Source: an uncultured Candidatus Saccharibacteria bacterium (GTDB lineage Bacteria > Patescibacteriota > Minisyncoccia > Minisyncoccales > JAGMDC01). Taken from it: a stretch of DNA of 64,000 nt. Numbering within the stretch: the first letter of the stretch is position 1; each line of letters opens with the position of its first letter. The notes beneath the pieces were generated by a model, which saw nothing but the letters and a program-made list of their open reading frames with translations, ran no database searches and was not told the origin of the DNA. Positions 2,136 through 55,049 of this stretch are shown here, in pieces. The position numbers and the translations under genes were made by a program. Location of the stretch: positions 125,267-189,266 of the forward strand of contig CAZTQA010000002.1 in the NCBI GenBank assembly GCA_964615205.1, given 5' to 3'.

Positions 2136-2314
2136 TTCCTCCCAGAGAACTATCCTCTTCCACTGCCTCTTGTGCCTTGCCCTCCTCCAAATCTTGTCTT
2201 TCTAGGCCTATGGATTTTCCTTTCTCTTCTTTCCCGTCTATTCTTTACGTCTCCACCCATTTTTTCCAACCGAGTATTATTATAAACAATCCTTAAAATT
2301 AGTCAAACAGAAAA

Positions 2315-2342
2315 CCCCGGTGCTGCGATCGCAGCACCGGGG
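2315..2342 (-). terminator. rho-independent terminator of groESL (28-bp perfect palindrome)
   Basis: ccccggtgctgcga/tcgcagcaccgggg is a perfect palindrome. On the minus strand it is followed by ttttctgttt and lies 38 nt downstream of the groEL stop. Confidence 0.7.
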
Positions 2343-2379: not shown

Positions 2380-4324
<1,945 letters not shown>

Positions 4325-4886: not shown

Positions 4887-6251
4887 ATGTTTCTTTCTCT
4901 TTTTAAAAAACTTTTTTGCTTTTTTGTTTTATCAGCCCTTATAACCGGGTTTTTTCTTTTTGTCATAAGTAATCCCAAAGAAATCAATAAGATTTTTTCT
5001 TCTGCTTCCTTGGCAGAAATTTCTAAAGAAGACAATCAAAAACCTGAAGAAAAAATTAAATACTTAATAGACTTTTATAGTTTAACTGAGCAGGAATTTA
5101 TTTCTCAAGAAAAAGATTTTATAGAAATAAATCTTTCAGAAGAAAAAGCCCAAGTTTATAAACAAGGAATAATGGAAAAAGAGATTGACATTCTGACTCA
5201 AGGAAATCCTCAAGAATGGGGAGGAACACCGGTCGGTCTCTATGAGGTTTTGTCTGGAAATAAAATAGGTTTTTCCAACATCAGTCAGGTGTATATGCCT
5301 TGGGCTCTCCATTTTTATGGAAAATACTATATCCACGGAGAACCCTATTATTCCAATGGAACTAAAATGGAATCAGATTACTCTGGAGGTTGCATTAGAT
5401 TTACTGATAAAGATGCTGAATATATTTTTAAAGCCACTGAAATCGGAATACCTATGTTAATTATTGACAAACAATCCCTTTCTTCAGAAATTGTGGGAGG
5501 CCCGGCCTCCCACAATTTAGAGGTTTCGGCAGAATCTTTTTTGGTAGCTGATTTAGACAATTATCAAGTTTTGGCAGAAAAAAACTCAAGCCAGGTTCTT
5601 CCTATTGCTTCTTTAAGCAAGCTTATGACAGCTATAATAGCCATAGAACATAATAATTTAAAGAATTCAATCTGGACCACAGAAGATATGCTTACTGCCC
5701 TTGGCTCTACTCCTGGCTTAGAAGCAAACAAAAAATATAACTTAGTAGAACTGCTTCACCCTCTTTTAACCCAATCTTCAAACGATGCAGCTGAAATATT
5801 AACCAGGTTCTTGGGTAGAGAGAAAACTATTAATTTAATGAATGAAAAAACAAAAACTATTGGTATGAAAAACACTTTTTTTGAAGACCCCAGCGGTCTA
5901 AGTCCTAATAATGTTTCCACAACTGAAGATTTATTCTATTTAACTCGATATATTTTTAATGTTCGTCCTCCTATCTTAGAAATAACTAAGGGCGAAATAA
6001 TTGAAGATTTTGGCACAGTTCATTTTGAAGATCTACATAACAAAAATATTTTTCCAGAAAGCCAAGATTTTTTGGGCGGTAAAACCGGATTTATTGTTGA
6101 GTCCAAGAATACAGGCATATTCATATTCAAAATGCCTTTATCAGACAACACTTCTCGTAATATAGTTATTATTCTTCTGAAATCAAAGTCTCCTAAAACC
6201 GACGTAGAAAAAATAATTACCTGGTGGTTTGAAAATATTTTTTTACAATGA
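4887..6251 (+). CDS. fusion of L,D-transpeptidase (YkuD) domain and serine D-Ala-D-Ala carboxypeptidase (PBP5/S11-like) domain
   Basis: YIHGEPYY...SGGCIRF matches the YkuD H...GC[IV]R catalytic signature. Downstream SLSKLMT (SxxK) and SSND (SxN-like) motifs fit a DD-carboxypeptidase. N-terminal TM present. Confidence 0.7.
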   Translation: MFLSLFKKLFCFFVLSALITGFFLFVISNPKEINKIFSSASLAEISKEDNQKPEEKIKYLIDFYSLTEQEFISQEKDFIEINLSEEKAQVYKQGIMEKEIDILTQGNPQEWGGTPVGLYEVLSGNKIGFSNISQVYMPWALHFYGKYYIHGEPYYSNGTKMESDYSGGCIRFTDKDAEYIFKATEIGIPMLIIDKQSLSSEIVGGPASHNLEVSAESFLVADLDNYQVLAEKNSSQVLPIASLSKLMTAIIAIEHNNLKNSIWTTEDMLTALGSTPGLEANKKYNLVELLHPLLTQSSNDAAEILTRFLGREKTINLMNEKTKTIGMKNTFFEDPSGLSPNNVSTTEDLFYLTRYIFNVRPPILEITKGEIIEDFGTVHFEDLHNKNIFPESQDFLGGKTGFIVESKNTGIFIFKMPLSDNTSRNIVIILLKSKSPKTDVEKIITWWFENIFLQ

Positions 6252-7511: not shown

Positions 7512-8090
7512 ATGAAAATGAAAACAGGAATATCAATTGCATTAATAATCGGCTTATGTCTCGTATGCGTAGCAGCTGCCTATGTGTTTGAGTCCCGTTC
7601 CATAGTTACCTTCTCGGGTACGGTGAGAAGTGCGGATATTGTCGTAAGCGATCCCCTGAATCTGGACATAGGAGACTTAGGTCCTGGTGAAGAATTCGTA
7701 ATTATTGAGCCGGGATCAATAGATCTCTACACAAACATCAACGGTCTTTGCGTACGAGTATACGCTGAAAATTACAACTACGAAGTACTGCAAAGCTTGC
7801 AGATATCCGCTGAAGTGTTAAATCTGGACGATGGCTTAATCATAGCGACCTTCAACGACAAGGACGTAAGCTCATTGTACTATGAGTTGAATTTAAAGAA
7901 CCTGCCGAACAACGTTTGCTTTCACTTCACTAGGATCGAAGGACAAGCAGCCTATTCCAAGGGAGATAAAACCCTTGGCAATCTTCAGATTAAGCTTTAC
8001 CCTTATCCGAATGAGTGGGATACTAGTGAAGGCAAAGGAATGGGATTAACAACCTCGAACGAGACAACCAGCGACGGGGCAAAGGGTTAA
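7512..8090 (+). CDS. secreted hypothetical protein (weak TasA/camelysin-type signal-region resemblance)
   Basis: 192 aa with a signal/TM, then AAAYVFESRS...TFSGTV. Preceded by a strong GGGAGGTGAT Shine-Dalgarno, unlike most genes here. Confidence 0.5.
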   Translation: MKMKTGISIALIIGLCLVCVAAAYVFESRSIVTFSGTVRSADIVVSDPLNLDIGDLGPGEEFVIIEPGSIDLYTNINGLCVRVYAENYNYEVLQSLQISAEVLNLDDGLIIATFNDKDVSSLYYELNLKNLPNNVCFHFTRIEGQAAYSKGDKTLGNLQIKLYPYPNEWDTSEGKGMGLTTSNETTSDGAKG

Positions 8091-8205: not shown

Positions 8206-8233
8206 AAGTAATCTCACGATCGTGAGATTACTT
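8206..8233. repeat. 28-bp perfect palindrome, family B copy 1 (intergenic)
   Basis: aagtaatctcacga/tcgtgagattactt. Matches 26/28 to the copy at 39327..39354 inside tsaD, and the two differences are compensatory. Confidence 0.8.
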
Positions 8234-8242
8234 GTGGGATTT

Positions 8243-8266
8243 ACCCCGTACAATCCTATACGGGGT
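8243..8266 (+). terminator. hairpin followed by T-tract
   Basis: accccgta-caatccta-tacggggt (8-bp stem), followed by ttacttctttttt. Confidence 0.45.
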
Positions 8267-8301: not shown

Positions 8302-8673
8302 GTGTTAAGAGAACTCATTCTTAAAATCATTGCCGGAATTGCCGGAATTTGGTTAGCGTCTGAATTTGTTTCCGGCGTGATGATAATAGATTCCTGGCAG
8401 ATATTTGTCTGGGCAGGTTTAATTTTAGGCCTGATTAATTATTTCATTAAACCTATCCTTAATTTCATCGCTCTGCCCTTGCGAATATTGACTTTAGGAT
8501 TATTTAGTTTAGTTATTAATATGGGAATTATCTGGGTAGTAGATTATTTTTTTGACAGCATCACTATTCAGGAATTAGCTTCCTTATTCTGGACTACCCT
8601 TATTGTCTGGTTGATGAATATAATTCTGCCTAAATTTTTTCCTAAAAAAAGAAAACTATTGGAAAATGCCTGA
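8302..8673 (+). CDS. DUF360 / 4-TMS holin-superfamily-IV-like membrane protein
   Basis: 123 aa with four TM segments. IKPILNFIALPLRILTLGLFSLVIN is typical of this family. GTG start. Confidence 0.7.
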   Translation: MLRELILKIIAGIAGIWLASEFVSGVMIIDSWQIFVWAGLILGLINYFIKPILNFIALPLRILTLGLFSLVINMGIIWVVDYFFDSITIQELASLFWTTLIVWLMNIILPKFFPKKRKLLENA

Positions 8674-8889: not shown

Positions 8890-10881
8890 ATGTCTCTAAA
8901 AGAAAAATTGCCTTCCTTTAATCAATGGAAGCGATTATTTAAAATTTTAAATAAGAAGGAAAAGATATATTTTTCTCTTTTCTTTATTTTATTTTTATTC
9001 TCCTTTCTTTTTCTTTCTTTCAATTTTTATTTCAATAATACTCAAATTGTTCCCAAACAAGGCGGAATCTACACCGAGGGCTTGATAGGCCAGCCCAGAT
9101 TTATAAATCCTGTTTATGCCACTTCTAACGATGTTGACAGAGATCTCACAGAAATACTTTTTTCTGGATTAATGAAGTACGACAGCAATGGAAATTTAGT
9201 CCTGGATTTGGCTAAAGGATATAATCCAGAAAACGAAGGAAGAGGTTATACTTTTTATCTAAAAGAGAATGTCTTTTGGTCGGACAATGAAAAACTTACT
9301 GCTGATGACATAATTTTTACCATTGAAACCATACAGAATCCGGATTATAAAAGTGAACTGCGTACAAATTGGTTAGGAGTAGATACTGAAAAAATCTCTG
9401 AATATGCAGTCAAATTCATATTAGACAAACCCTACAGCGGTTTTTTAGAAAGACTGACTTTAAAGATTCTGCCCGCTCATATCTGGAAGGAAGTTTCTGC
9501 GGATAATTTTTCCAAAAGCTATTACAATCTCCAGCCTGTAACTTGCGGACCCTACAAAATAGATAAGGTAGACCAAGATAAAAAAACAGGTTTAATTAAT
9601 TCTTTAACTTTAGAAAGGGACGAAAACTATTTCAACCAAAAACCATATATTTCAAAAATAATTTTCTACTTTTTTGAAACCGAAGAAGATCTCGTTGAGG
9701 CTACCCAGCAAGGCAGAATTAAGGGCCTTTCCCTAAATAATTTTCAAAGTCAAGAAATACCTTCTTTCTTAAAAGAATACGCCCTGACTCTTCCAAGATA
9801 TTTTGCTATCTTTTTTAATCCCGAAGAGTCAGATATTCTTGAAAAGAAGGAAATCAGGCAAGCCTTGAATTACGGAACCAATAAACAAGAATTGATTGAT
9901 AAAGTATTGGCTGACAAAGCTACTATTGTTGATTCACCCATTCTGCCTGAGATATTTAATTTCCAGGCGCCGGAAACCGTATATGAATATGATGCGGAAA
10001 AAGCCAAGAAAATTTTGGAAGATCAAGGATTTAAAGAAACCGAAAACGGTTATAGAGAAAAAGAGATCAAAAAAGAATTGGCATTTTCTTTTAAAAGTGA
10101 GTTAAGCTACGGTTCTGAAAACAAAGAGGTGGAAGAGCTTCAGAGATGCTTAGTCAACAGCGAGATCGTGGGAGAAGATATTTATCCAGAAAAAGAAATC
10201 ACTGGCTATTTTGGAAACAAAACTAAAGAAGCTGTAATTAGATTTCAGGAAAAATATAGAGAGGAAATACTTGATCCCGGAGGTTACACAAAAGGAACTG
10301 GAACTGTAGGACAATCCACCAGAAAAAAACTTAATCAAATCTGTTTTGACAATACTCAGGAAACACTTCCATTGAAATTTTCTTTAGTAACTGTCGATGA
10401 CCCAGTTTTAAAAGAAATAGCTGATTTAATTAAAGAACAGTGGCAAAAAATAGGAGTGGAGCTTGAAATCAATGTTTTTTCTGTTTCTGATCTCCAGTAT
10501 GACTGCATTAAACCCAGAAATTACGAGTCCCTTCTTTTTGGAGAAGTATTGGGAATAATTCCTGACCCTTATCCTTTCTGGCATTCTTTGCAAAAAGTAG
10601 ATCCCGGACTTAATTTAGCTATCTACGAAAACAAAAAAACAGACAAGCTTTTAGAAGGTGCCCGACAGCTTCAGGACATGGAAACTATTCAAGAAAAACT
10701 GGAAGAATTCCAAAACCTATTAATTGCTGACGCTCCCTGCGTTTTTCTGTACAGTCCAAACTATACTCATCTTGTTTCCAAGGAAATCCGGGGAATCAAT
10801 CCGGGATTGATAGCTGATCCCTCAAAAAGATTCAGCCAAATAGAAGATTGGTATATCAAAACCAAAAGAACTTTTAAGTAA
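8890..10881 (+). CDS. family-5 (peptide/nickel type) solute-binding protein with an inserted peptidoglycan-binding domain
   Basis: 663 aa with an N-terminal TM and SBP_bac_5-like sequence throughout. The internal EVEELQRCL...GYFGNKTKEAVIRFQEKY...GTVGQSTRKKLNQ resembles PG_binding_1. Confidence 0.65.
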   Translation: MSLKEKLPSFNQWKRLFKILNKKEKIYFSLFFILFLFSFLFLSFNFYFNNTQIVPKQGGIYTEGLIGQPRFINPVYATSNDVDRDLTEILFSGLMKYDSNGNLVLDLAKGYNPENEGRGYTFYLKENVFWSDNEKLTADDIIFTIETIQNPDYKSELRTNWLGVDTEKISEYAVKFILDKPYSGFLERLTLKILPAHIWKEVSADNFSKSYYNLQPVTCGPYKIDKVDQDKKTGLINSLTLERDENYFNQKPYISKIIFYFFETEEDLVEATQQGRIKGLSLNNFQSQEIPSFLKEYALTLPRYFAIFFNPEESDILEKKEIRQALNYGTNKQELIDKVLADKATIVDSPILPEIFNFQAPETVYEYDAEKAKKILEDQGFKETENGYREKEIKKELAFSFKSELSYGSENKEVEELQRCLVNSEIVGEDIYPEKEITGYFGNKTKEAVIRFQEKYREEILDPGGYTKGTGTVGQSTRKKLNQICFDNTQETLPLKFSLVTVDDPVLKEIADLIKEQWQKIGVELEINVFSVSDLQYDCIKPRNYESLLFGEVLGIIPDPYPFWHSLQKVDPGLNLAIYENKKTDKLLEGARQLQDMETIQEKLEEFQNLLIADAPCVFLYSPNYTHLVSKEIRGINPGLIADPSKRFSQIEDWYIKTKRTFK

Positions 10882-32852: not shown

Positions 32853-35410
32853 AATTTTATCTTTAAAGTAACTATTTCAAAAGGATTAATAGTAAATTCC
32901 ATAATATTTTTATTGAGCTTTATTTTCTTGCTTATTTTTTTATCCTCTTTCTCAAGCAGATTAACTGTCTGTACATCTTTGATGTCTTTAAAAGAATTTA
33001 TCCTTGCCCTTGTCTTCTTGCCGGAAATTTCATAAACCCTGACAATAAAACCATTATTTTTCTCTGCCTTTTTAAAAGCACTTAGCAAAACATTATCTGG
33101 TTCAACTTTCAAAAATGAATTTTCTGCCCTACATTTTCTGTCCGGCTCCACCTGAAGAGCTGCTAACTTATTATTGACTTGCCAGGCCTGTTTCCAAACC
33201 TTGGCTTTCTTCCAATCATTTTGATGAGGATAAATGGAATAGTTAAAAACATAATTCCTAAATTCCCGAGCTTCAGACACAGGAATAATAGGACCGGCTT
33301 TGCCATCAGAAGAAAGCACCTCCACCGACCTTAATAAGGTTAGATACATACAATTATCTCTGACTTCATTTTCCGGATTACCTGTATTTATAAGGGTTAA
33401 CCCCTTTCTTTGGTCGCTGTAATCAAACCATTGCCAGCAAGGAAAAATACCCGGACATTCTTCATAATAAGAGGCGCACTTTAAATGATATTGGTCAGTT
33501 TTTCTCTCTGTTGTTCCAAACTGACTTTCAGAAACATATTTATCTTGATTGACTTTAGTGTCAAATCCTACCCTTATTCTTATTTTGGGATGATTGTTTT
33601 CTACTTCGGTTACAAAATCGATTCTGGGTAATTCTTTGTAAATAATCATTTTCTTTCTAAATTTAATAAAGGGATACCTCCAGATTTGGGGCTTCAAACT
33701 ATCTACTAATCTATAAGGCCATCTCAAAGAAAAGTAATCAGTTTCAATGTTAATAATTTTTCTTAAATTAGAATCTTGTGTATTGTAATTTCTGATTTTA
33801 AAAGTTCCGTATTTTAAACCTTTTCCACTTTCAGTTTTTAGAGGAAAATTAAAACTTTCTTTATGATTATAGAGGTCTCCCGATTCATCATCTAAAACTA
33901 TCTCATTGCCTTTACATAAAAGCTTGTTTCTCTGAAAAACTTCAATTAATCCATCTTCTTTAGAAAACTTAACATTGAAAAATTTGTTTTTAATAAGATT
34001 GTTGTTCTGTTTAAGAAAAAAGCTTTCATCTATTTGGGGTTTAGCACTCATAATTCTGTAAACCTTATAGCCCAGTGCTGGAACATCGGCTACAAAACCT
34101 ATCTTAATTCTCTTCAAAGAATTATCTGAATATCTCTGGGATTCTATCTCTTCAACTTCCTTCTCTATATTCTGGTTTTTAACCCCAGTTATTTTGAAAA
34201 CCTTCCCTTGTTTAAAATCTAACTCGCACTCCACCCAATCAGACACATCCCAGGATAATGAATTGAAAACAGCTATCTCCTCAAAATTGGGGGAGGTCGA
34301 ACCTCCCCCAATTTTGGAATTATTGATAAGTATTGAGTTTAAAACATAATTAAAAGGATCTGGAATTCTGCTCTTTAAAAAACTAATGTTTTCTTTAGCT
34401 TCAGTGTACCCGGAATCCACACCTGTGCCAGGAACTACATCATGAAAAGCTAAAAACAAAACTTTCTTCCATAAGTTTCTCAAATTGATAGGGCATTTAT
34501 TTCCTAAAAGAGAATTGATAGAACTGAATTTTTCAAAACCAATTAAACTATTTTCGCATTCACGCAAATCTTTTTTGAGCCAAATCCTGGTAGAGGCTGT
34601 GCCTGGAAAGACGCGGGAATATCTGCCTGAATACATTTCTCCTTTTCTGACGCGAAGTTTTTTTTGCTCTTTCTCCAAACTCCTGAAAAATTCAGAGACA
34701 AGAGCTATCTTCATTTTGGATTTATGTTTTCGGTTCCATTTTTTAACCGCTGACATTGTTTCTTCTTGAGGCAGAGTTACTCCGCTGCCAGAAGGCATTA
34801 AAATATTTTTAGTCGCCGCCCAGCCTTTTAATTTAGTATAACTTTCTTCTAATTTGGTTAGATCTAAACCGGCCCTATATCCTAAGGGCATAAAATGAGA
34901 AATAATCTTTGTTCCATCCAGTCCTTGCCATATAAATTCAGAAAATTTTCTTTGAAAAGCTCCCCTTCTGAAAGCCACGTATTTATAACCGCATTTACGA
35001 TATACTTGGGGAAGCTGATTATTAAGCCCGAAACTGTCTGCCTGCCACATTACTTCAACATCTTTGTTGAAGTTTTCTTCCACGAAATCTTTACCCACAG
35101 CTATTTCCCTCACCAAGGTTTCACCTTGGGGAAACATAGTATCTGCCATTAAATATTCTCCATCAGCAATCTCAATTTTGTCTTCTTGAATATATTTTTT
35201 AATTTTTCTAAAAAGCTCCGGGTATTTATTTTTGATTTCTTCTAATAAATATGTCTGTTCAATCAAAAAGCGATAATCTTTTTCTTTTTCCATCAAGATT
35301 ACAACTTTCTTTAAAATTAAATCTATATTGATATGAAAATAATCTTCTCGGGTAAAAACCCAAACCGCATCATAATGAGTATGTGGAACTAAATAAATTT
35401 CATTTTTCAT
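32849..35410 (-). CDS. GH38 alpha-mannosidase family protein
   Basis: LVPHTHYDAVW N-terminal GH38 signature and family-typical length. Start set at ATG 35410 (MKNEIYLVPH), giving an 11-nt overlap with the upstream gene. Confidence 0.8.
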   Translation of the reverse strand: MKNEIYLVPHTHYDAVWVFTREDYFHINIDLILKKVVILMEKEKDYRFLIEQTYLLEEIKNKYPELFRKIKKYIQEDKIEIADGEYLMADTMFPQGETLVREIAVGKDFVEENFNKDVEVMWQADSFGLNNQLPQVYRKCGYKYVAFRRGAFQRKFSEFIWQGLDGTKIISHFMPLGYRAGLDLTKLEESYTKLKGWAATKNILMPSGSGVTLPQEETMSAVKKWNRKHKSKMKIALVSEFFRSLEKEQKKLRVRKGEMYSGRYSRVFPGTASTRIWLKKDLRECENSLIGFEKFSSINSLLGNKCPINLRNLWKKVLFLAFHDVVPGTGVDSGYTEAKENISFLKSRIPDPFNYVLNSILINNSKIGGGSTSPNFEEIAVFNSLSWDVSDWVECELDFKQGKVFKITGVKNQNIEKEVEEIESQRYSDNSLKRIKIGFVADVPALGYKVYRIMSAKPQIDESFFLKQNNNLIKNKFFNVKFSKEDGLIEVFQRNKLLCKGNEIVLDDESGDLYNHKESFNFPLKTESGKGLKYGTFKIRNYNTQDSNLRKIINIETDYFSLRWPYRLVDSLKPQIWRYPFIKFRKKMIIYKELPRIDFVTEVENNHPKIRIRVGFDTKVNQDKYVSESQFGTTERKTDQYHLKCASYYEECPGIFPCWQWFDYSDQRKGLTLINTGNPENEVRDNCMYLTLLRSVEVLSSDGKAGPIIPVSEAREFRNYVFNYSIYPHQNDWKKAKVWKQAWQVNNKLAALQVEPDRKCRAENSFLKVEPDNVLLSAFKKAEKNNGFIVRVYEISGKKTRARINSFKDIKDVQTVNLLEKEDKKISKKIKLNKNIMEFTINPFEIVTLKIKL

Positions 35411-36457: not shown

Positions 36458-38593
36458 ATGGAAATGATGGCAACAATGGATTTATCCACACCAATTGAAA
36501 AAATCTTTGGCATTGGCCCGGTTTTTCAAAAAAAACTAAAAAGAATAGGGGTTAAAACTGTCCGCGACCTATTTTATCATTTTCCTCACCGTTATGAGGA
36601 CTTTTCCAATATTATTTCTGTTTCCAAAGTAAAATTAAATGAAAATGTTTGTATTTTGGGGAAAATCCTGGAGATAAAAAATAGCCGAACCTGGAAAAAA
36701 AGAATGATTTTAACCCAAGCCATTGTTCAGGATAAAAACGGGGCCATAAAAGTGGTCTGGTTCAACCAGCCCTATCTAACCAGAACTTTAAAAATAAATG
36801 ATAATGTCTGTTTGGCTGGAAAAACTACCTTGGGAGAAGATGGACTATATCTTTCTAATCCTGCCTATGAGAAAATTACCGACTATAAACCACAAACCAT
36901 AAACTTAACCCACACCGGCCGATTGGTGCCCGTATATCCGGAAACAGAGGGACTTTCTTCGCGCTGGCTAAGATATATTTTAAAGCCCCTCTTATTTAAA
37001 TTTCAGAATCAGATTCCGGAAATCATTCCTCCTCAAATACTCCAAGAAAATAAGCTTTTGCCAATCAAAAAATCCCTCTGGCAGGTTCACTTCCCAGATT
37101 CTTTAGATTCGGCTCAAAAAGCCAAACAAAGATTTTCTTTTGAGGAATTGTTTTTAATTGAATTGGCTGTTTTAAAATCCAGGATGCGCCTCAATGAACA
37201 GAAATCAATATCCATTCCTATGAACATTGATTTGATCAAACGTTTTGTCCAGGGTTTGGGTTTTAAATTAACGGACGACCAAAGAAAATCTAGCTGGCAA
37301 ATTATGAAAGATTTAGAAAAAACCAGGCCTATGAACCGGCTTCTGGAAGGAGATGTTGGTTCTGGCAAAACAATTGTGGCTTTGATAGCTGCTTTAGAAA
37401 CCATTAAAGCTGGCTATCAGGCGGCTTTTATGGCTCCTACAGAAATTTTAGCTAAGCAGCATTTCAAAGAAGTAGCTTCTCGTTTTAAAAACTTTAATAT
37501 TAATATTGGTTTGTTAACCGGGAAAGAAGACAAGTTTATTTCTAAAAAATTAAAACAGGAACCGATTGAAATTTCTAGAAACAAGCTTTTAGAGAAGAGT
37601 CTGAAAAAAGAAATAGATATTTTGATTGGTACTCATGCTTTAATTCAGGATAGGGTTAAATTTGGCAATTTGGCTTTAGTAATTCTAGACGAACAACATC
37701 GTTTCGGCGTAGAACAGCGCGCCCGCCTTGCAGGGACAGGAGGGGGACTGTCCCCCTCCTGTCCCCATCTATTGTCTATGACCGCCACCCCTATCCCCCG
37801 CAGCCTGGCTTTGACTATATACGGCGACCTTGACCTGTCTTTGATAGAACAGCTTCCCAAGGGAAGGAAAAAAATAATTACTAAAATAGTTCCTCTGACT
37901 GAAAGAAATAAAACCTATAGTTTTATTAAAAAAGAAATAAAAAAGGGAAGACAAGTATTCATTATCTATCCCAGAATTGAAGCTAATAATGATGAAACGC
38001 TCACGGAGACCAAAGCTGTAAAGCAGGAATACGAAAGATTGTCAAAAAAAGTTTTTCCAGATTTAAAATTAGCTATGCTTCATGGAAAAATGACCCCAAA
38101 GGAGAAAGAGAAGATAATGCTTGACCTAAAGAATAGAAAAACAGATATTCTGGTTTCCACCTCTGTGATAGAAGTAGGCATTGACGTACCTAATGCTACA
38201 GTTATGCTTATAGAGGGAGCAGAAAGATTTGGTTTAGCTCAATTACATCAGTTTAGGGGAAGAGTGGGGCGTTCAAAGTACCAATCCTATTGTTTTCTTT
38301 TGACAGAATCACCGGCAAGAAAAACCCACCAAAGATTAAAAGCTCTGATTTCAGCCCAAAATGGGTTTGAATTGGCAGAAAAAGATCTGCAGATAAGGGG
38401 GCCAGGAGATTTTAGCGGAACAAGACAGTGGGGTATTCCAGATTTAATAATGGATTCTTTGAAAGATTTTTCTTTAGTGGAAAAAACTAGAGAAGCAGCT
38501 AAAAGAATATTAGAAAAAGACAAACAATTAAAAAATTATCCTTGGCTCAAAGAAAGATTAAAAGAATTTAATCAAAGGATTCATTTAGAGTAA
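36458..38593 (+). CDS. recG: ATP-dependent DNA helicase RecG
   Basis: Wedge/OB N-terminus, GDVGSGKT, DEQHRFGV, MTATPIPR, and RGRVGR. Confidence 0.9.
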   Translation: MEMMATMDLSTPIEKIFGIGPVFQKKLKRIGVKTVRDLFYHFPHRYEDFSNIISVSKVKLNENVCILGKILEIKNSRTWKKRMILTQAIVQDKNGAIKVVWFNQPYLTRTLKINDNVCLAGKTTLGEDGLYLSNPAYEKITDYKPQTINLTHTGRLVPVYPETEGLSSRWLRYILKPLLFKFQNQIPEIIPPQILQENKLLPIKKSLWQVHFPDSLDSAQKAKQRFSFEELFLIELAVLKSRMRLNEQKSISIPMNIDLIKRFVQGLGFKLTDDQRKSSWQIMKDLEKTRPMNRLLEGDVGSGKTIVALIAALETIKAGYQAAFMAPTEILAKQHFKEVASRFKNFNINIGLLTGKEDKFISKKLKQEPIEISRNKLLEKSLKKEIDILIGTHALIQDRVKFGNLALVILDEQHRFGVEQRARLAGTGGGLSPSCPHLLSMTATPIPRSLALTIYGDLDLSLIEQLPKGRKKIITKIVPLTERNKTYSFIKKEIKKGRQVFIIYPRIEANNDETLTETKAVKQEYERLSKKVFPDLKLAMLHGKMTPKEKEKIMLDLKNRKTDILVSTSVIEVGIDVPNATVMLIEGAERFGLAQLHQFRGRVGRSKYQSYCFLLTESPARKTHQRLKALISAQNGFELAEKDLQIRGPGDFSGTRQWGIPDLIMDSLKDFSLVEKTREAAKRILEKDKQLKNYPWLKERLKEFNQRIHLE
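37743..37775. repeat. 33-bp perfect palindrome, family A copy 1 (in frame inside recG)
   Basis: gggacaggagggggac-t-gtccccctcctgtccc, translated as GTGGGLSPSCP between helicase motifs II and III. Matches the copy at 55007..55039 at 30/33. Confidence 0.8.
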
Positions 38594-38596
38594 GAG

Positions 38597-38668
38597 CGAC
38601 CCTACGGAGAGTCGAACTCCGGTTTTCAGGATGAAAACCTGATGTCCTAGCCACTAGACGATAGGGTC
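38597..38668 (-). tRNA. tRNA-Glu (anticodon UUC)
   Basis: Minus strand: acceptor GACCCTA/TAGGGTC, anticodon arm TCAGG-TTTTCAT-CCTGA, T arm CGGAG-TTCGACT-CTCCG. Confidence 0.85.
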
Positions 38669-38691: not shown

Positions 38692-39795
38692 ATGAGAAAA
38701 AAATCAATGGAAAACATAATAATTTTAGCTATTGAAACCTCTTGTGATGACACCTGCATAGCAATATTAAAAATCAAAAATCAAAAATCAAAAATATTGA
38801 GTAATGCGGTTTCGTCGCAAATAGAAATCCATAAAAGGTATGGAGGAGTTTATCCTATGATGGCAAAAAGAGAGCATCAAAAAAACCTGCCTTTAGTTCT
38901 CAAAAAATCCCTGGAAGAGGCTAAAATTAATCGCCCTGATTATATTGCTGTAACCATAGGCCCAGGATTAGAACCTTGTTTATGGACTGGAGTAAATTTT
39001 GCTAAACATTTAGCTCAAAAATGGAATCTCGAAATTATACCAGTAAATCATATTGAATCTCACATATTAGTTAATTTTCTACAAACTACCAACCATAAGC
39101 TACAAGCTGTTCTCCCGGCTGTTTGTTTGGTAGTAAGTGGTGGACATACCCAGTTAATTTTAATGAAAGAAATTGGGAAGTATAAAATTTTGGGAGAGAC
39201 CAGGGATGATGCAGCTGGGGAATGTTTTGATAAAACTGCTCGCATCCTTGGCTTAGATTATCCCGGAGGACCCGCCGTAGCTCAACAAGCTGATCAATTC
39301 AGACAATCTAGAAAAAATAAAGAAACAAGTAAACTCACGATCGTGAGTTTACTTCCGAGACCAATGATTTACTCTAAGGATTATGATTTTAGTTTTTCCG
39401 GATTAAAAACCGCAGTCTTATATAAAGTTAAATGTCCCGTCTTCGCCAAGGCTTCAGTGGACAAGGAAAAACAAAAAACAAAAAAATTTGTTCAAATGAT
39501 GGCTAAAGAAATCCAGCAGGCTATTATTGATATTTTAATTAAAAAAACTTTGAAAGCAGCCAAAGATTACAATGCTAAAACAATTATCTTGGGAGGAGGA
39601 GTTTCTGCTAATCAGGAACTACGTAAGCAATTTAAGAAAAAGATTCAAAAAGATTTCTCTCAATGCCAGTTTTTAGTTCCTGAACCAAAGTTCAGCACAG
39701 ATAATGCTGTTATGACTGCCATAACTGCCTATTTTAATTTAAGTAAAACCCAAAGCTGGAAAAAAATTAAAGTTAATGCTAATCTTAAAGTATGA
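38692..39795 (+). CDS. tsaD: tRNA N6-adenosine threonylcarbamoyltransferase TsaD
   Basis: AIETSCDDT, NHIESH, DFSFSGLKTA, and GGGVSAN. The start may be the ATG at 38707. Confidence 0.9.
   Translation: MRKKSMENIIILAIETSCDDTCIAILKIKNQKSKILSNAVSSQIEIHKRYGGVYPMMAKREHQKNLPLVLKKSLEEAKINRPDYIAVTIGPGLEPCLWTGVNFAKHLAQKWNLEIIPVNHIESHILVNFLQTTNHKLQAVLPAVCLVVSGGHTQLILMKEIGKYKILGETRDDAAGECFDKTARILGLDYPGGPAVAQQADQFRQSRKNKETSKLTIVSLLPRPMIYSKDYDFSFSGLKTAVLYKVKCPVFAKASVDKEKQKTKKFVQMMAKEIQQAIIDILIKKTLKAAKDYNAKTIILGGGVSANQELRKQFKKKIQKDFSQCQFLVPEPKFSTDNAVMTAITAYFNLSKTQSWKKIKVNANLKV
39327..39354. repeat. 28-bp perfect palindrome, family B copy 2 (inside tsaD)
   Basis: aagtaaactcacga/tcgtgagtttactt, covering codons TSKLTIVSLL. 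These lie in a segment longer than the E. coli TsaD equivalent as I recall it. Confidence 0.8.
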
Positions 39796-41140: not shown

Positions 41141-41227
41141 TGGTGCCGCAGGAGAGATTTGAACTCTCAAGTCCTTTCGGACACTGGGTCCTAAACCCAG
41201 CGCGTCTGCCAGTTCCGCCACCGCGGC
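41141..41227 (-). tRNA. tRNA-Leu (anticodon UAG), CCA encoded
   Basis: Minus strand: acceptor GCCGCGG/CTGCGGC, anticodon arm CTGGG-TTTAGGA-CCCAG, long variable arm, T arm GAGAG-TTCAAAT-CTCTC, 3-prime ACCA. Confidence 0.85.
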
Positions 41228-41297
41228 TCATTTATTATTTTAACCTACTTCTAAAAAAAATCAATCCCGTTTGAACGGGATTGATTTTAGAATAAAT

Positions 41298-53157: not shown

Positions 53158-53997
53158 TTAAATAAACAGATTTAAATACCAATTTGTTATTTGCTGGCCC
53201 CAGAATAAAGCGATAAAAGTGCCTGTTACCAGAAAAGGACCAAAAGGAATTTCTGATTTCAGGGTTTTCTTTTTAATTAAAATCAGTTCTATTCCTATTA
53301 TAGCACCAATTAGAAAAGCAAAAAACATAGCTACAAAAATATTGGGCCAGCCAAGCAGCAAGCCCATTAAAAAAGCAAGCTTTATGTCTCCTACTCCCAT
53401 GCCCTTGCCATGAGTAATAAGAACAATTGCCAGGAAAAAACCAGCAGCAATAAAAGCTGCTGAGATAAAGCTCCAAATCCCAATCCGCCAGCTGGCGGAC
53501 AATGACCAATCAAATCCCAATGACCAATTTTCAAACAATTTATAAATAAAGGCTATCCCTATAGCTGGGAAGATAACCTTGTCTGGGATGATGTAGTGCT
53601 TCAAGTCATAGACAAAGATAATTATTAAAATGCTGGCAATAGCAAAAAGAAACATTAAATCCAAAATCTCTGGCTCTGCCAGATCTGGCGTAGCTAGACA
53701 AAATCCTAACGACCAATAATAAAAAATTGGTAGAAATAGCAAACCCGTTGCTATTTCTACCAATGGGTATTGAATAGAGATTTTTTTGTGGCAGTAGCGG
53801 CATTTAGCTTTTAAAATAAAAAAGCTTAGTAAAGGGATTAAATCATACCAAGCCAGTTTGTGTCTGCATTTCGGGCAATAAGACCTGCCCTTCAAAGCGC
53901 TCTCCCCCTTCTCCAAGCGATAAATAACGCAATTTAAAAAACTACCCACTGTCAGGCCAAAAATAAAAACAAAAACATAGAAAACAACATTTACCAT
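53158..53997 (-). CDS. pilD: prepilin peptidase (A24 family) PilD
   Basis: N-terminal CxxC...CxxC (CPKCRH...CRYCHK), a multi-TM body, and KGMGVGDIKL and PFGPFL aspartyl-protease motifs. Confidence 0.9.
   Translation of the reverse strand: MVNVVFYVFVFIFGLTVGSFLNCVIYRLEKGESALKGRSYCPKCRHKLAWYDLIPLLSFFILKAKCRYCHKKISIQYPLVEIATGLLFLPIFYYWSLGFCLATPDLAEPEILDLMFLFAIASILIIIFVYDLKHYIIPDKVIFPAIGIAFIYKLFENWSLGFDWSLSASWRIGIWSFISAAFIAAGFFLAIVLITHGKGMGVGDIKLAFLMGLLLGWPNIFVAMFFAFLIGAIIGIELILIKKKTLKSEIPFGPFLVTGTFIALFWGQQITNWYLNLFI
53669..53698. repeat. 30-bp palindrome, family D copy 2 (inside pilD)
   Basis: tctggctctgccaga/tctggcgtagctaga. In pilD it encodes LATPDLAEPE, a different reading frame of the element from copy 1. 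Confidence 0.7.
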
Positions 53998-54955: not shown

Positions 54956-55006
54956 ACATAAAGTGTGTCAGACGTATCTGAATCTGGACAACAAAGGTTA
55001 GACAAA

Positions 55007-55039
55007 GGGACAGGAGGGAGACAGTCCCTCTCCTGTCCC
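55007..55039. repeat. 33-bp palindrome, family A copy 2 (intergenic, 11 nt downstream of the OST gene stop)
   Basis: gggacaggagggagacagtccctctcctgtccc. The outer 10-bp arms are perfect and the inner part is degenerate. Confidence 0.75.
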
Positions 55040-55049
55040 TGTTAAACTT

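Follow-up and report, generated by a model that had tools for sequence, protein, structure and literature searches.

The 28-bp palindrome inside tsaD was found to be one copy of a multi-copy palindromic repeat, present mainly in ultra-small bacteria (Patescibacteria), that in a subset of loci abuts, and typically brackets, the gene of a conserved PaaX-like protein, that lies between genes and in tolerant protein loops, and whose two arms largely remain complementary when it mutates. The window analysed here is a 64-kb stretch (64,000 nucleotides, 36% GC) of an uncultured Candidatus Saccharibacteria bacterium (contig CAZTQA010000002.1). A first-pass annotation had reported a perfect 28-bp palindrome in tsaD, an intergenic copy differing at exactly two positions that remain complementary, and a third 28-bp palindrome, also centred on CGATCG, as the groEL terminator, and this observation proved to be correct. 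The window holds two copies of AAGTAA[A/T]CTCACGATCGTGAG[T/A]TTACTT (hereafter designated family B), which differ only at positions 7 and 22 by complementary changes, and the three palindromes are all perfect, with 14-nt arms and no loop (Table 1). The window contains only three CGATCG sites, each of which is the centre of one of these palindromes.

Table 1 Features of the window that bear on the palindrome family.
Positions	Strand	Feature	Sequence and context
39327..39354		Family-B palindrome, A/T variant	AAGTAAACTCACGATCGTGAGTTTACTT; in frame in tsaD, reading ..KE-TSKLTIVSLL-PRPM; DNA hairpin -10 kcal/mol, z -5.2; no T tract
38692..39795	+	tsaD host gene, intact	Palindrome lies in the variable loop just before the conserved (L)PRPM motif
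8206..8233		Family-B palindrome, T/A variant	AAGTAATCTCACGATCGTGAGATTACTT; intergenic, between the next two ORFs listed; GC-rich stem followed by a T tract only on the non-coding-side strand
7512..8090		ORF	
8302..8673		Holin-like ORF	
8243..8266	+	Ordinary terminator hairpin	Next to the intergenic copy, which is therefore not needed as the plus-strand terminator here
2315..2342		GC-rich 28-bp palindrome centred on GCGATCGC	CCCCGGTGCTGCGATCGCAGCACCGGGG; scans as a bidirectional intrinsic terminator after groEL, with a GC-rich stem followed by a T tract on both strands; relation to family B uncertain
2380..4032	-	groEL	
2279..2306	-	Strong promoter-like site TTGACT-16-TATAAT	Directly after the groEL terminator, upstream of the hyp-LemA-HtpX genes (the next operon)

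The occurrence of these sequences by chance was examined by shuffling. The 28-mer pattern gave no match in 100 shuffles even with 3 mismatches allowed, whereas the window holds exactly two copies and no degenerate relics, and perfect hairpins with arms of at least 11 nt occur at 11 loci in the window, against a mean of about 0.5 hits per Markov-shuffled sequence in 30 shuffles. The first-pass annotation had also taken the TsaD segment to be longer than that of E. coli TsaD; relative to the solved Thermotoga TsaD (6N9A), the loop before PRPM is about 10–11 residues longer, and it holds about 20 residues against about 12 in most of 120 Patescibacteria orthologues. An assembly artefact was ruled out, because the identical insert-bearing TsaD is present in NCBI, JGI, and ENA assemblies, among which no insert-free strain variant of tsaD was found, and an ENA contig reproduces the groEL palindrome. 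In an Rfam search, no known RNA family matched at these sites, only 5 tRNAs being found in the window. Conservation of the segment in distant TsaD proteins, which had been named beforehand as a point against the palindrome reading, is formally observed in one case, the TsaD of a distant carrier locus (L026), which also reads ..NLTIV.. at that site; however, the cause is the same DNA palindrome and not protein conservation. Of the 120 listed homologues, 117 lack the segment, and the three that carry it are copies of the window's own protein (P0001) or variants centred on GCGATCGC (P0117 and P0057).

To determine how widely the family is distributed, we scanned one genome per GTDB species for AA-N-CTCACGATCGTGAG-N-TT. 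The centre YTCACGATCGTGAR was found in 93 stretches, where a uniform-composition estimate for 596 Gb gives about 9 hits by chance; indeed, about a dozen hits, in Actinomycetota, Polynucleobacter, and others, have arms of only 7–10 nt and look like that background. The remaining hits are mostly from Patescibacteria (Saccharibacteria, Uhr-, Jorgensen-, Yonath-, and Nomurabacteria, Paceibacterota, and WWE3), with others from Verrucomicrobiota/Kiritimatiellota and a few MAGs labelled Gammaproteobacteria. In these genomes, the core usually lies inside a perfect palindrome of 36–54 bp, with arms of typically 17–22 nt and up to 27 nt, and the outer arms differ between genomes but are shared by the copies within a genome. 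Of 110 copies, 91 are perfect, and only 21 positions are unpaired in 1964 arm pairs, although the initial search pattern forced the core to be perfect, which inflates the apparent perfection near the centre. Within genomes, the variant positions are mostly mirrored in both arms, with about 28 mirrored variants against about 10 interior one-arm variants. Moreover, the 21 mismatches are about half transition-type and split evenly between the two strands (5 G/T and 5 A/C), showing no one-strand wobble bias of the kind that RNA-level selection would leave, and palindromy often continues 1–5 nt past the shared unit into the copy-specific flank. No hit for the core was obtained in IMG/VR viral contigs, a result against a phage origin.

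A scan of JGI metagenomes for the source population revealed 8 more matches (6 distinct sites) of exactly AAGTAA[A/T]CTCAC...GTGAG[T/A]TTACTT, in which both variants occur as perfect palindromes. One copy, at the locus designated L096, is an A/A hybrid that lies 27 bp upstream of the start of a PaaX-like gene cut by the contig end, and another (L098) lies in frame in a 447-aa PP-loop-like protein. No target-site duplication was seen in the flanks of the source-lineage copies. The window and about 18 kb of extensions contain no PaaX-like gene, and the extensions contain no further copy; for this genome, the link to the gene rests on the one metagenome contig (L096).

Clustering of all ORFs in the fetched loci identified one strongly recurrent neighbour, a 180–300-aa protein encoded directly beside the palindrome in 20 of the 93 loci, whereas the next most frequent clusters reach only 6 and 5 loci. 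Pfam assigns this protein PaaX_M, the Cas2-like central domain of PaaX, as a strong match, while the C-terminal PaaX_C is absent from the 179-aa Patescibacteria forms and gives only a weak match in the longer Verrucomicrobiota form. The NCBIfam PaaX equivalog scores far below its cutoff, and Cas2 is also returned. An AlphaFold model (pLDDT 79) is closest to E. coli PaaX (8A39) and then to Cas2 and VapD, consistent with a predicted winged helix plus a Cas2-like domain. The Patescibacteria form is a tight family of 920 homologues of about 179 aa with 50–70% identity, named PaaX regulator, Cas2, or hypothetical in the sources. Of 23 such genes, 17 have a CGATCG-centred palindrome about 20–65 bp before the start, 17 have one just after the stop, and 12 have both; at one of these loci (L034), the stop codon TAA forms the first three bases of the downstream copy. 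As a check free of the bias of the search pattern, four loci were chosen by protein similarity alone (L108–L111). L108 and L111 are bracketed by perfect palindromes with 20–25-nt arms and the core TTCACGATCGTGAA, L109 has a copy with 14-nt arms upstream, and L110 has only degenerate copies on both sides, indicating that symmetrisation is not universal. A second paralogue in L110 is bracketed by its own, different palindrome, centred on AAGCTT. The gene keeps its synteny (htrA-clpB ... PaaX-like-LTD protein-radical SAM) and is therefore a resident gene, as a normal regulator would be, and not a hopping cassette. The N-terminal winged-helix part is highly divergent between lineages, too much so to be aligned reliably for a comparison of recognition helix with core type, whereas the Cas2-like part and the DNA centre are conserved. 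The protein carries an invariant FD(I/V)PE aspartate.

The positions of the copies relative to genes were then examined. In low-GC loci, 38 copies lie in tandem spacers, 10 in convergent spacers, and 5 in divergent spacers, many of them within 0–50 bp of a stop codon, and 13 are spanned by an ORF. At least nine of the latter are in frame in real genes, namely those for TsaD (the window and L026), the PP-loop-like protein (L098 and L068, the latter from a different lineage), KsgA, RNase HII, a P-type ATPase, an LTD giant protein, and a Wzy-like protein. Only two frames of the core are open, reading LTIV and HDRE, and both are used, the third containing TGA. The neighbours of the dispersed copies are unrelated housekeeping genes (LeuRS, CysRS, L21, GatB, MiaA, GyrB-like, and RecR), and we see no coherent regulon; a heat-shock regulon, suggested by groEL, hsp20/prsW, and clpB/htrA lying nearby, was discarded on these grounds and because many sites lie after stops or in convergent spacers.

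In two proteins, copies occur at the same site in different lineages. L026, whose TsaD is 57% identical to that of the window, carries a 40-bp family palindrome in the same loop, reading ..KKD-PRGENLTIVRFSPR-LPRPM. Its orthologue L106, with a TsaD 88% identical to that of L026, has a palindrome at that site with 5 of 20 arm positions changed, four of them mirrored, and a further locus (L107) has a degenerate version. L098 and L068 carry the variants of their own genomes at one site of the PP-loop-like protein, a segment that is hypervariable among 120 orthologues. About 30 of these show xTIVx, xAIAx, or xAMAx peptides there, as expected from palindromes centred on ACGATCGT, GCGATCGC, or GCCATGGC, although this is inferred from peptides, the DNA having been seen for just two of them. 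These results show that in-ORF copies persist for a long time and change in a mirrored way, yet wherever the DNA was examined they match the intergenic copies of their own genome, which needs either concerted evolution or repeated targeted insertion.

The first-pass annotation proposed either selection for the hairpin or the origin of new copies by one arm templating the other, and this interpretation is only partly supported. Its core holds and generalises, in that complementarity of the arms is what is preserved; the data do not decide between the two alternatives but lean towards templating. The cross-phylum family, the longer lineage-specific arms, and the PaaX-like partner gene were missed, and the link drawn to the groEL palindrome is weak, since the latter shares only the CGATCG centre and the 28-bp length with family B and is most likely an ordinary terminator.

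Our preferred interpretation, held with moderate confidence, is that the tsaD palindrome and its intergenic twin belong to a dispersed palindromic repeat family with a conserved centre, flanking A/T tracts, and lineage-specific outer arms, which would be the cognate DNA element of the conserved, single-copy PaaX-like protein, with further copies in intergenic DNA and in the few protein loops that tolerate 10–14 extra residues. What the analysis itself establishes is the family, its distribution, its symmetry, its association with the gene, and the in-frame insertions, whereas protein binding, nicking, mobility, and the copying mechanism are inferences. Two steps are robust inferences: identical 28–50-bp sequences at unrelated loci require copying and not convergence, and complementarity at freely varying positions requires a hairpin-level constraint or process, which a symmetric protein dimer on B-DNA would not impose. 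The PaaX-like dimer is inferred, without proof, to bind the palindrome with its conserved Cas2-like part over the conserved centre and its divergent winged helices on the lineage-specific arms, as E. coli PaaX does on TGATTC-N27-GAATCA (PMC9493321). The arms may stay complementary because the palindrome folds into a hairpin during replication and one arm is copied from the other, possibly promoted by the bound protein, the most economical process being quasipalindrome template switching, which makes imperfect inverted repeats perfect (PMC7202029) and is stimulated by protein trapped on DNA (PMC6357072); a change in one arm would then be either erased or mirrored, and palindromy could grow outward. 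The same kind of copying, or an unknown mobilisation step, may spread and homogenise the copies within a genome. Against this interpretation, the protein has no known transposase fold, no target-site duplication is seen, the partner gene keeps its synteny as a normal resident regulator would, the palindromes flanking the gene in L110 are degenerate, the same-site copies in TsaD and in the PP-loop-like protein need either repeated targeted insertion or concerted evolution, and the link to the gene for this genome rests on one metagenome contig. A more far-reaching reading, for which there is a real chance but which remains unlikely on present evidence, is that of a previously unrecognised class of protein-coupled palindromic repeats, in which the minimal PaaX-like protein recognises the centre conserved across phyla and, by stalling replication or nicking there, drives fold-back or template-switch copying that keeps each copy symmetric, homogenises copies within a genome, and seeds new ones, including in-frame copies in essential genes; this would be a REP/RAYT analogue built on a Cas2-like fold.

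Other explanations are considered less probable. The repeats could be a non-autonomous mobile element (MITE/REP-like) moved by an unidentified transposase, the PaaX-like protein being merely a regulator whose operator was the seed sequence or which uses the repeats secondarily. Arms identical over 20 nt or more at unrelated loci within one genome, the in-frame insertions, and the lack of regulon coherence all require some copy-and-paste process, and the PaaX fold has no known transposase activity; however, no transposase-like gene recurs near the copies in the loci examined, and neither target duplications nor hits in viral contigs were found, so that we regard this as unlikely. Somewhat less likely still, the hairpin itself may be the selected function in RNA or DNA, as a terminator, transcript-end stabiliser, or processing site, with the mirrored differences as classical compensatory substitutions. 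This would agree with the many copies just after stop codons that carry A and T tracts around the core, with the terminator-like groEL palindrome, and with the compensatory changes seen in REPIN hairpins (PMC3116915). Yet neither family-B copy in the window is the terminator of the neighbouring plus-strand genes, the mismatches show no one-strand wobble bias, perfect 40–54-bp stems exceed what a terminator needs, and selection for a hairpin does not explain a centre conserved across phyla or arms shared by all copies in a genome.

That the palindromes are ordinary operators of a PaaX-like regulon without mobility, their symmetry simply reflecting a symmetric dimer, is doubtful. A copy at fixed distance upstream of the partner gene is consistent with autoregulation, the architecture recalls the E. 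coli PaaX site, and the centre is conserved as in CIRCE- or parS-type sites, but a symmetric dimer does not require half-sites to be complementary at freely varying positions, and yet at position 8 all four bases occur with 103 of 110 copies complementary there. In addition, identical 40-bp sites cannot arise by point mutation, and sites also lie in convergent spacers and in ORFs. A by-product of a CGATCG-specific restriction-modification or methylation system, analogous to cyanobacterial HIP1, is very unlikely. Every CGATCG site in the window, and 11 of 13 in the source-lineage contigs, is a palindrome centre, and the groEL palindrome is centred on the HIP1 octamer, but GCGATCGC is not over-represented (one copy in 64 kb), the conserved unit is 14–20 bp and not 6–8 bp, and no methyltransferase or nuclease gene recurs beside the copies. 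A dif/Xer-like 11-6-11 recombination site was also rejected, because the copies are multiple and their arm length varies from 13 to 27 nt.

If the preferred interpretation is right, Patescibacteria and some Verrucomicrobiota/Kiritimatiellota carry a repeat-plus-protein system that parallels REP/RAYT but uses an unrelated, Cas2-like protein, which would be a second, independent solution to maintaining palindromic repeats and would give a possible function to hundreds of proteins now annotated as PaaX regulator, Cas2, or hypothetical. It would also offer a natural case in which templated, arm-to-arm mutation can be measured across many genomes, and would explain part of the puzzling length variation of conserved proteins in these reduced genomes, such as the TsaD loop and the PP-loop protein segment. 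For annotation, peptides such as xLTIVx, xHDREx, or xAIAx in variable loops would flag DNA palindromes rather than protein motifs. Literature searches for the core sequence and for PaaX-like proteins in Patescibacteria gave nothing relevant, and we found no published description of the system.

Among known systems, the family works like REP/REPIN elements with their RAYT (TnpA-REP) gene, which are likewise short, dispersed, mostly intergenic palindromes with a single-copy, vertically kept partner gene bracketed by the repeats, a lineage-specific repeat sequence, and compensatory changes in the hairpin (PMC3116915, PMC3337134). It differs in the defining feature, the partner being a winged-helix plus Cas2-like PaaX-type protein and not an HUH Y1 transposase, and in that the arms carry no shared GTAG tetranucleotide, the centre is conserved across phyla, copy numbers are low, and some copies are in frame in genes. 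Rickettsia palindromic elements (RPE; Ogata et al. 2000) are also inserted in frame into housekeeping protein genes at tolerant surface positions, but are about 100–150 bp, restricted to Rickettsia, and without a known partner protein, whereas the present elements are of 28–54 bp, unrelated in sequence, and have a partner gene. E. coli PaaX shares the architecture of the first two domains with the partner protein, and its operator is a long dyad with widely spaced half-sites, a copy of which lies in the regulator's own promoter region (PMC9493321); the copies of one MAG (CAYHPG) even read TGATTC-N26-GAATCA with the conserved core in the middle, while those of the window read AAGTAA-N16-TTACTT. 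In contrast to that system, there is no phenylacetate pathway context, the Patescibacteria proteins lack the C-terminal ligand domain, and the sites are multi-copy, mostly perfect palindromes found also after stops and inside ORFs. Quasipalindrome template-switch mutagenesis (Ripley model; PMC7202029, PMC6357072) predicts mirrored variants and outward growth of palindromy, but it is known as a mutational hotspot mechanism in E. coli, yeast, and T4 and not as the maintenance mode of a repeat family, and its action here is inferred only. Finally, HIP1 of cyanobacteria (Robinson 1995; Elhai 2015) shares the CGATCG-containing palindromic centre and the occurrence in both coding and non-coding DNA, but is an 8-mer that is hugely over-represented and spread by substitution, whereas here the sites are rare, the palindromes are long, and there is a partner gene.

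A search for inverted repeats in the window revealed a second hairpin family, GGGACAGGAGGGGGAC-T-GTCCCCCTCCTGTCCC against AGGGACAGGAGGGAGAC-n-GTCCCTCTCCTGTCCCT, in which, again, one copy is coding, lying within recG, and the other is intergenic, with a mirrored difference between them. A similar segment (GTVEGQSP) was found at the same place in RecG of L105, a locus carrying orthologues of the window's genes. Further perfect hairpins with 15–17-nt arms were detected at three positions inside ORFs and at one intergenic position, and two of them share AAATTG-GGGAGG. In total, 11 loci have arms of at least 11 nt, whereas a mean of about 0.5 hits per sequence was obtained in 30 Markov shuffles.

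The tsaD loop was also compared among the orthologous loci. Orthologues without the palindromic insert (L102, L103, and L104) carry 7-bp tandem repeats in this loop (AAAATTC ×5, AAACTAC, and AATTAAA), which give KFKIQNSKFKI-type peptides; a 7-bp repeat in a coding region would shift the reading frame on slippage. Other TsaD orthologues (that of L105 and the homologues P0019 and P0108) carry different hairpin-derived inserts at the same loop, as exemplified by HPVK...FNRV, where the two ends are reverse-complement readings of each other. The loop is a general sink for DNA-level insertions. As for the gene context, the tsaD-prsW-hsp20 block is flanked by tRNA genes, and the recG-tsaD-prsW-hsp20-pilin synteny is conserved in L102, L104, and L105. 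Beyond the right end of the window, the region found in an ENA assembly (L113) holds a phage-type integrase, an SNF transporter, and an Alba-like gene, and its two CGATCG sites are not palindromic; this region may be an island or a mis-join.

Positions of the additional hairpins, loop repeats, and neighboring features
Sequence	Position	Strand	Feature
Window	36458-38593		recG ORF
Window	37733-37765		second hairpin family, copy in recG
Window	55006-55040		second hairpin family, intergenic copy
Window	5488-5518		perfect hairpin, inside an ORF
Window	34282-34316		perfect hairpin, inside an ORF
Window	53726-53764		perfect hairpin, inside an ORF
Window	41257-41288		perfect hairpin, intergenic
Window	38597-38668	-	tRNA gene
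Window	41144-41227	-	tRNA gene
L104	around 10590-10640		tsaD loop with 7-bp tandem repeats
L098	347-1690		PP-loop-like protein gene
L110	784-1311		ORF of the second PaaX_M paralogue
L110	700-745		imperfect palindrome flanking ORF 784-1311
L110	1330-1375		imperfect palindrome flanking ORF 784-1311
L113	1-7905		region beyond the right end of the window

A hypervariable segment was found in a PP-loop-like protein of Patescibacteria (PF26298/PF26299), examined in L098, a JGI metagenome contig, together with 120 orthologues. The segment precedes the GGGKDS motif and holds tandem peptide repeats and palindrome-type peptides, and the total length of the protein ranges from 413 to 603 aa.

In L110, a locus selected by similarity to the PaaX-like protein, a second PaaX_M paralogue is bracketed on both sides by its own imperfect palindrome, CTTGTAAATAGTAAAGCTTTACTAAATACAAG. 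This arrangement, which is seen in the sequence, suggests the occurrence of cognate protein–palindrome pairs, a relationship that is inferred from the bracketing. The copies in the MAG CAYHPG01 (loci L031, L042, L049, and L055) read TGATTCG-AAAA-N-CTCACGATCGTGAG-N-TTTT-CGAATCA, that is, TGATTC-N26-GAATCA, which nearly matches the published E. coli PaaX site (PMC9493321).
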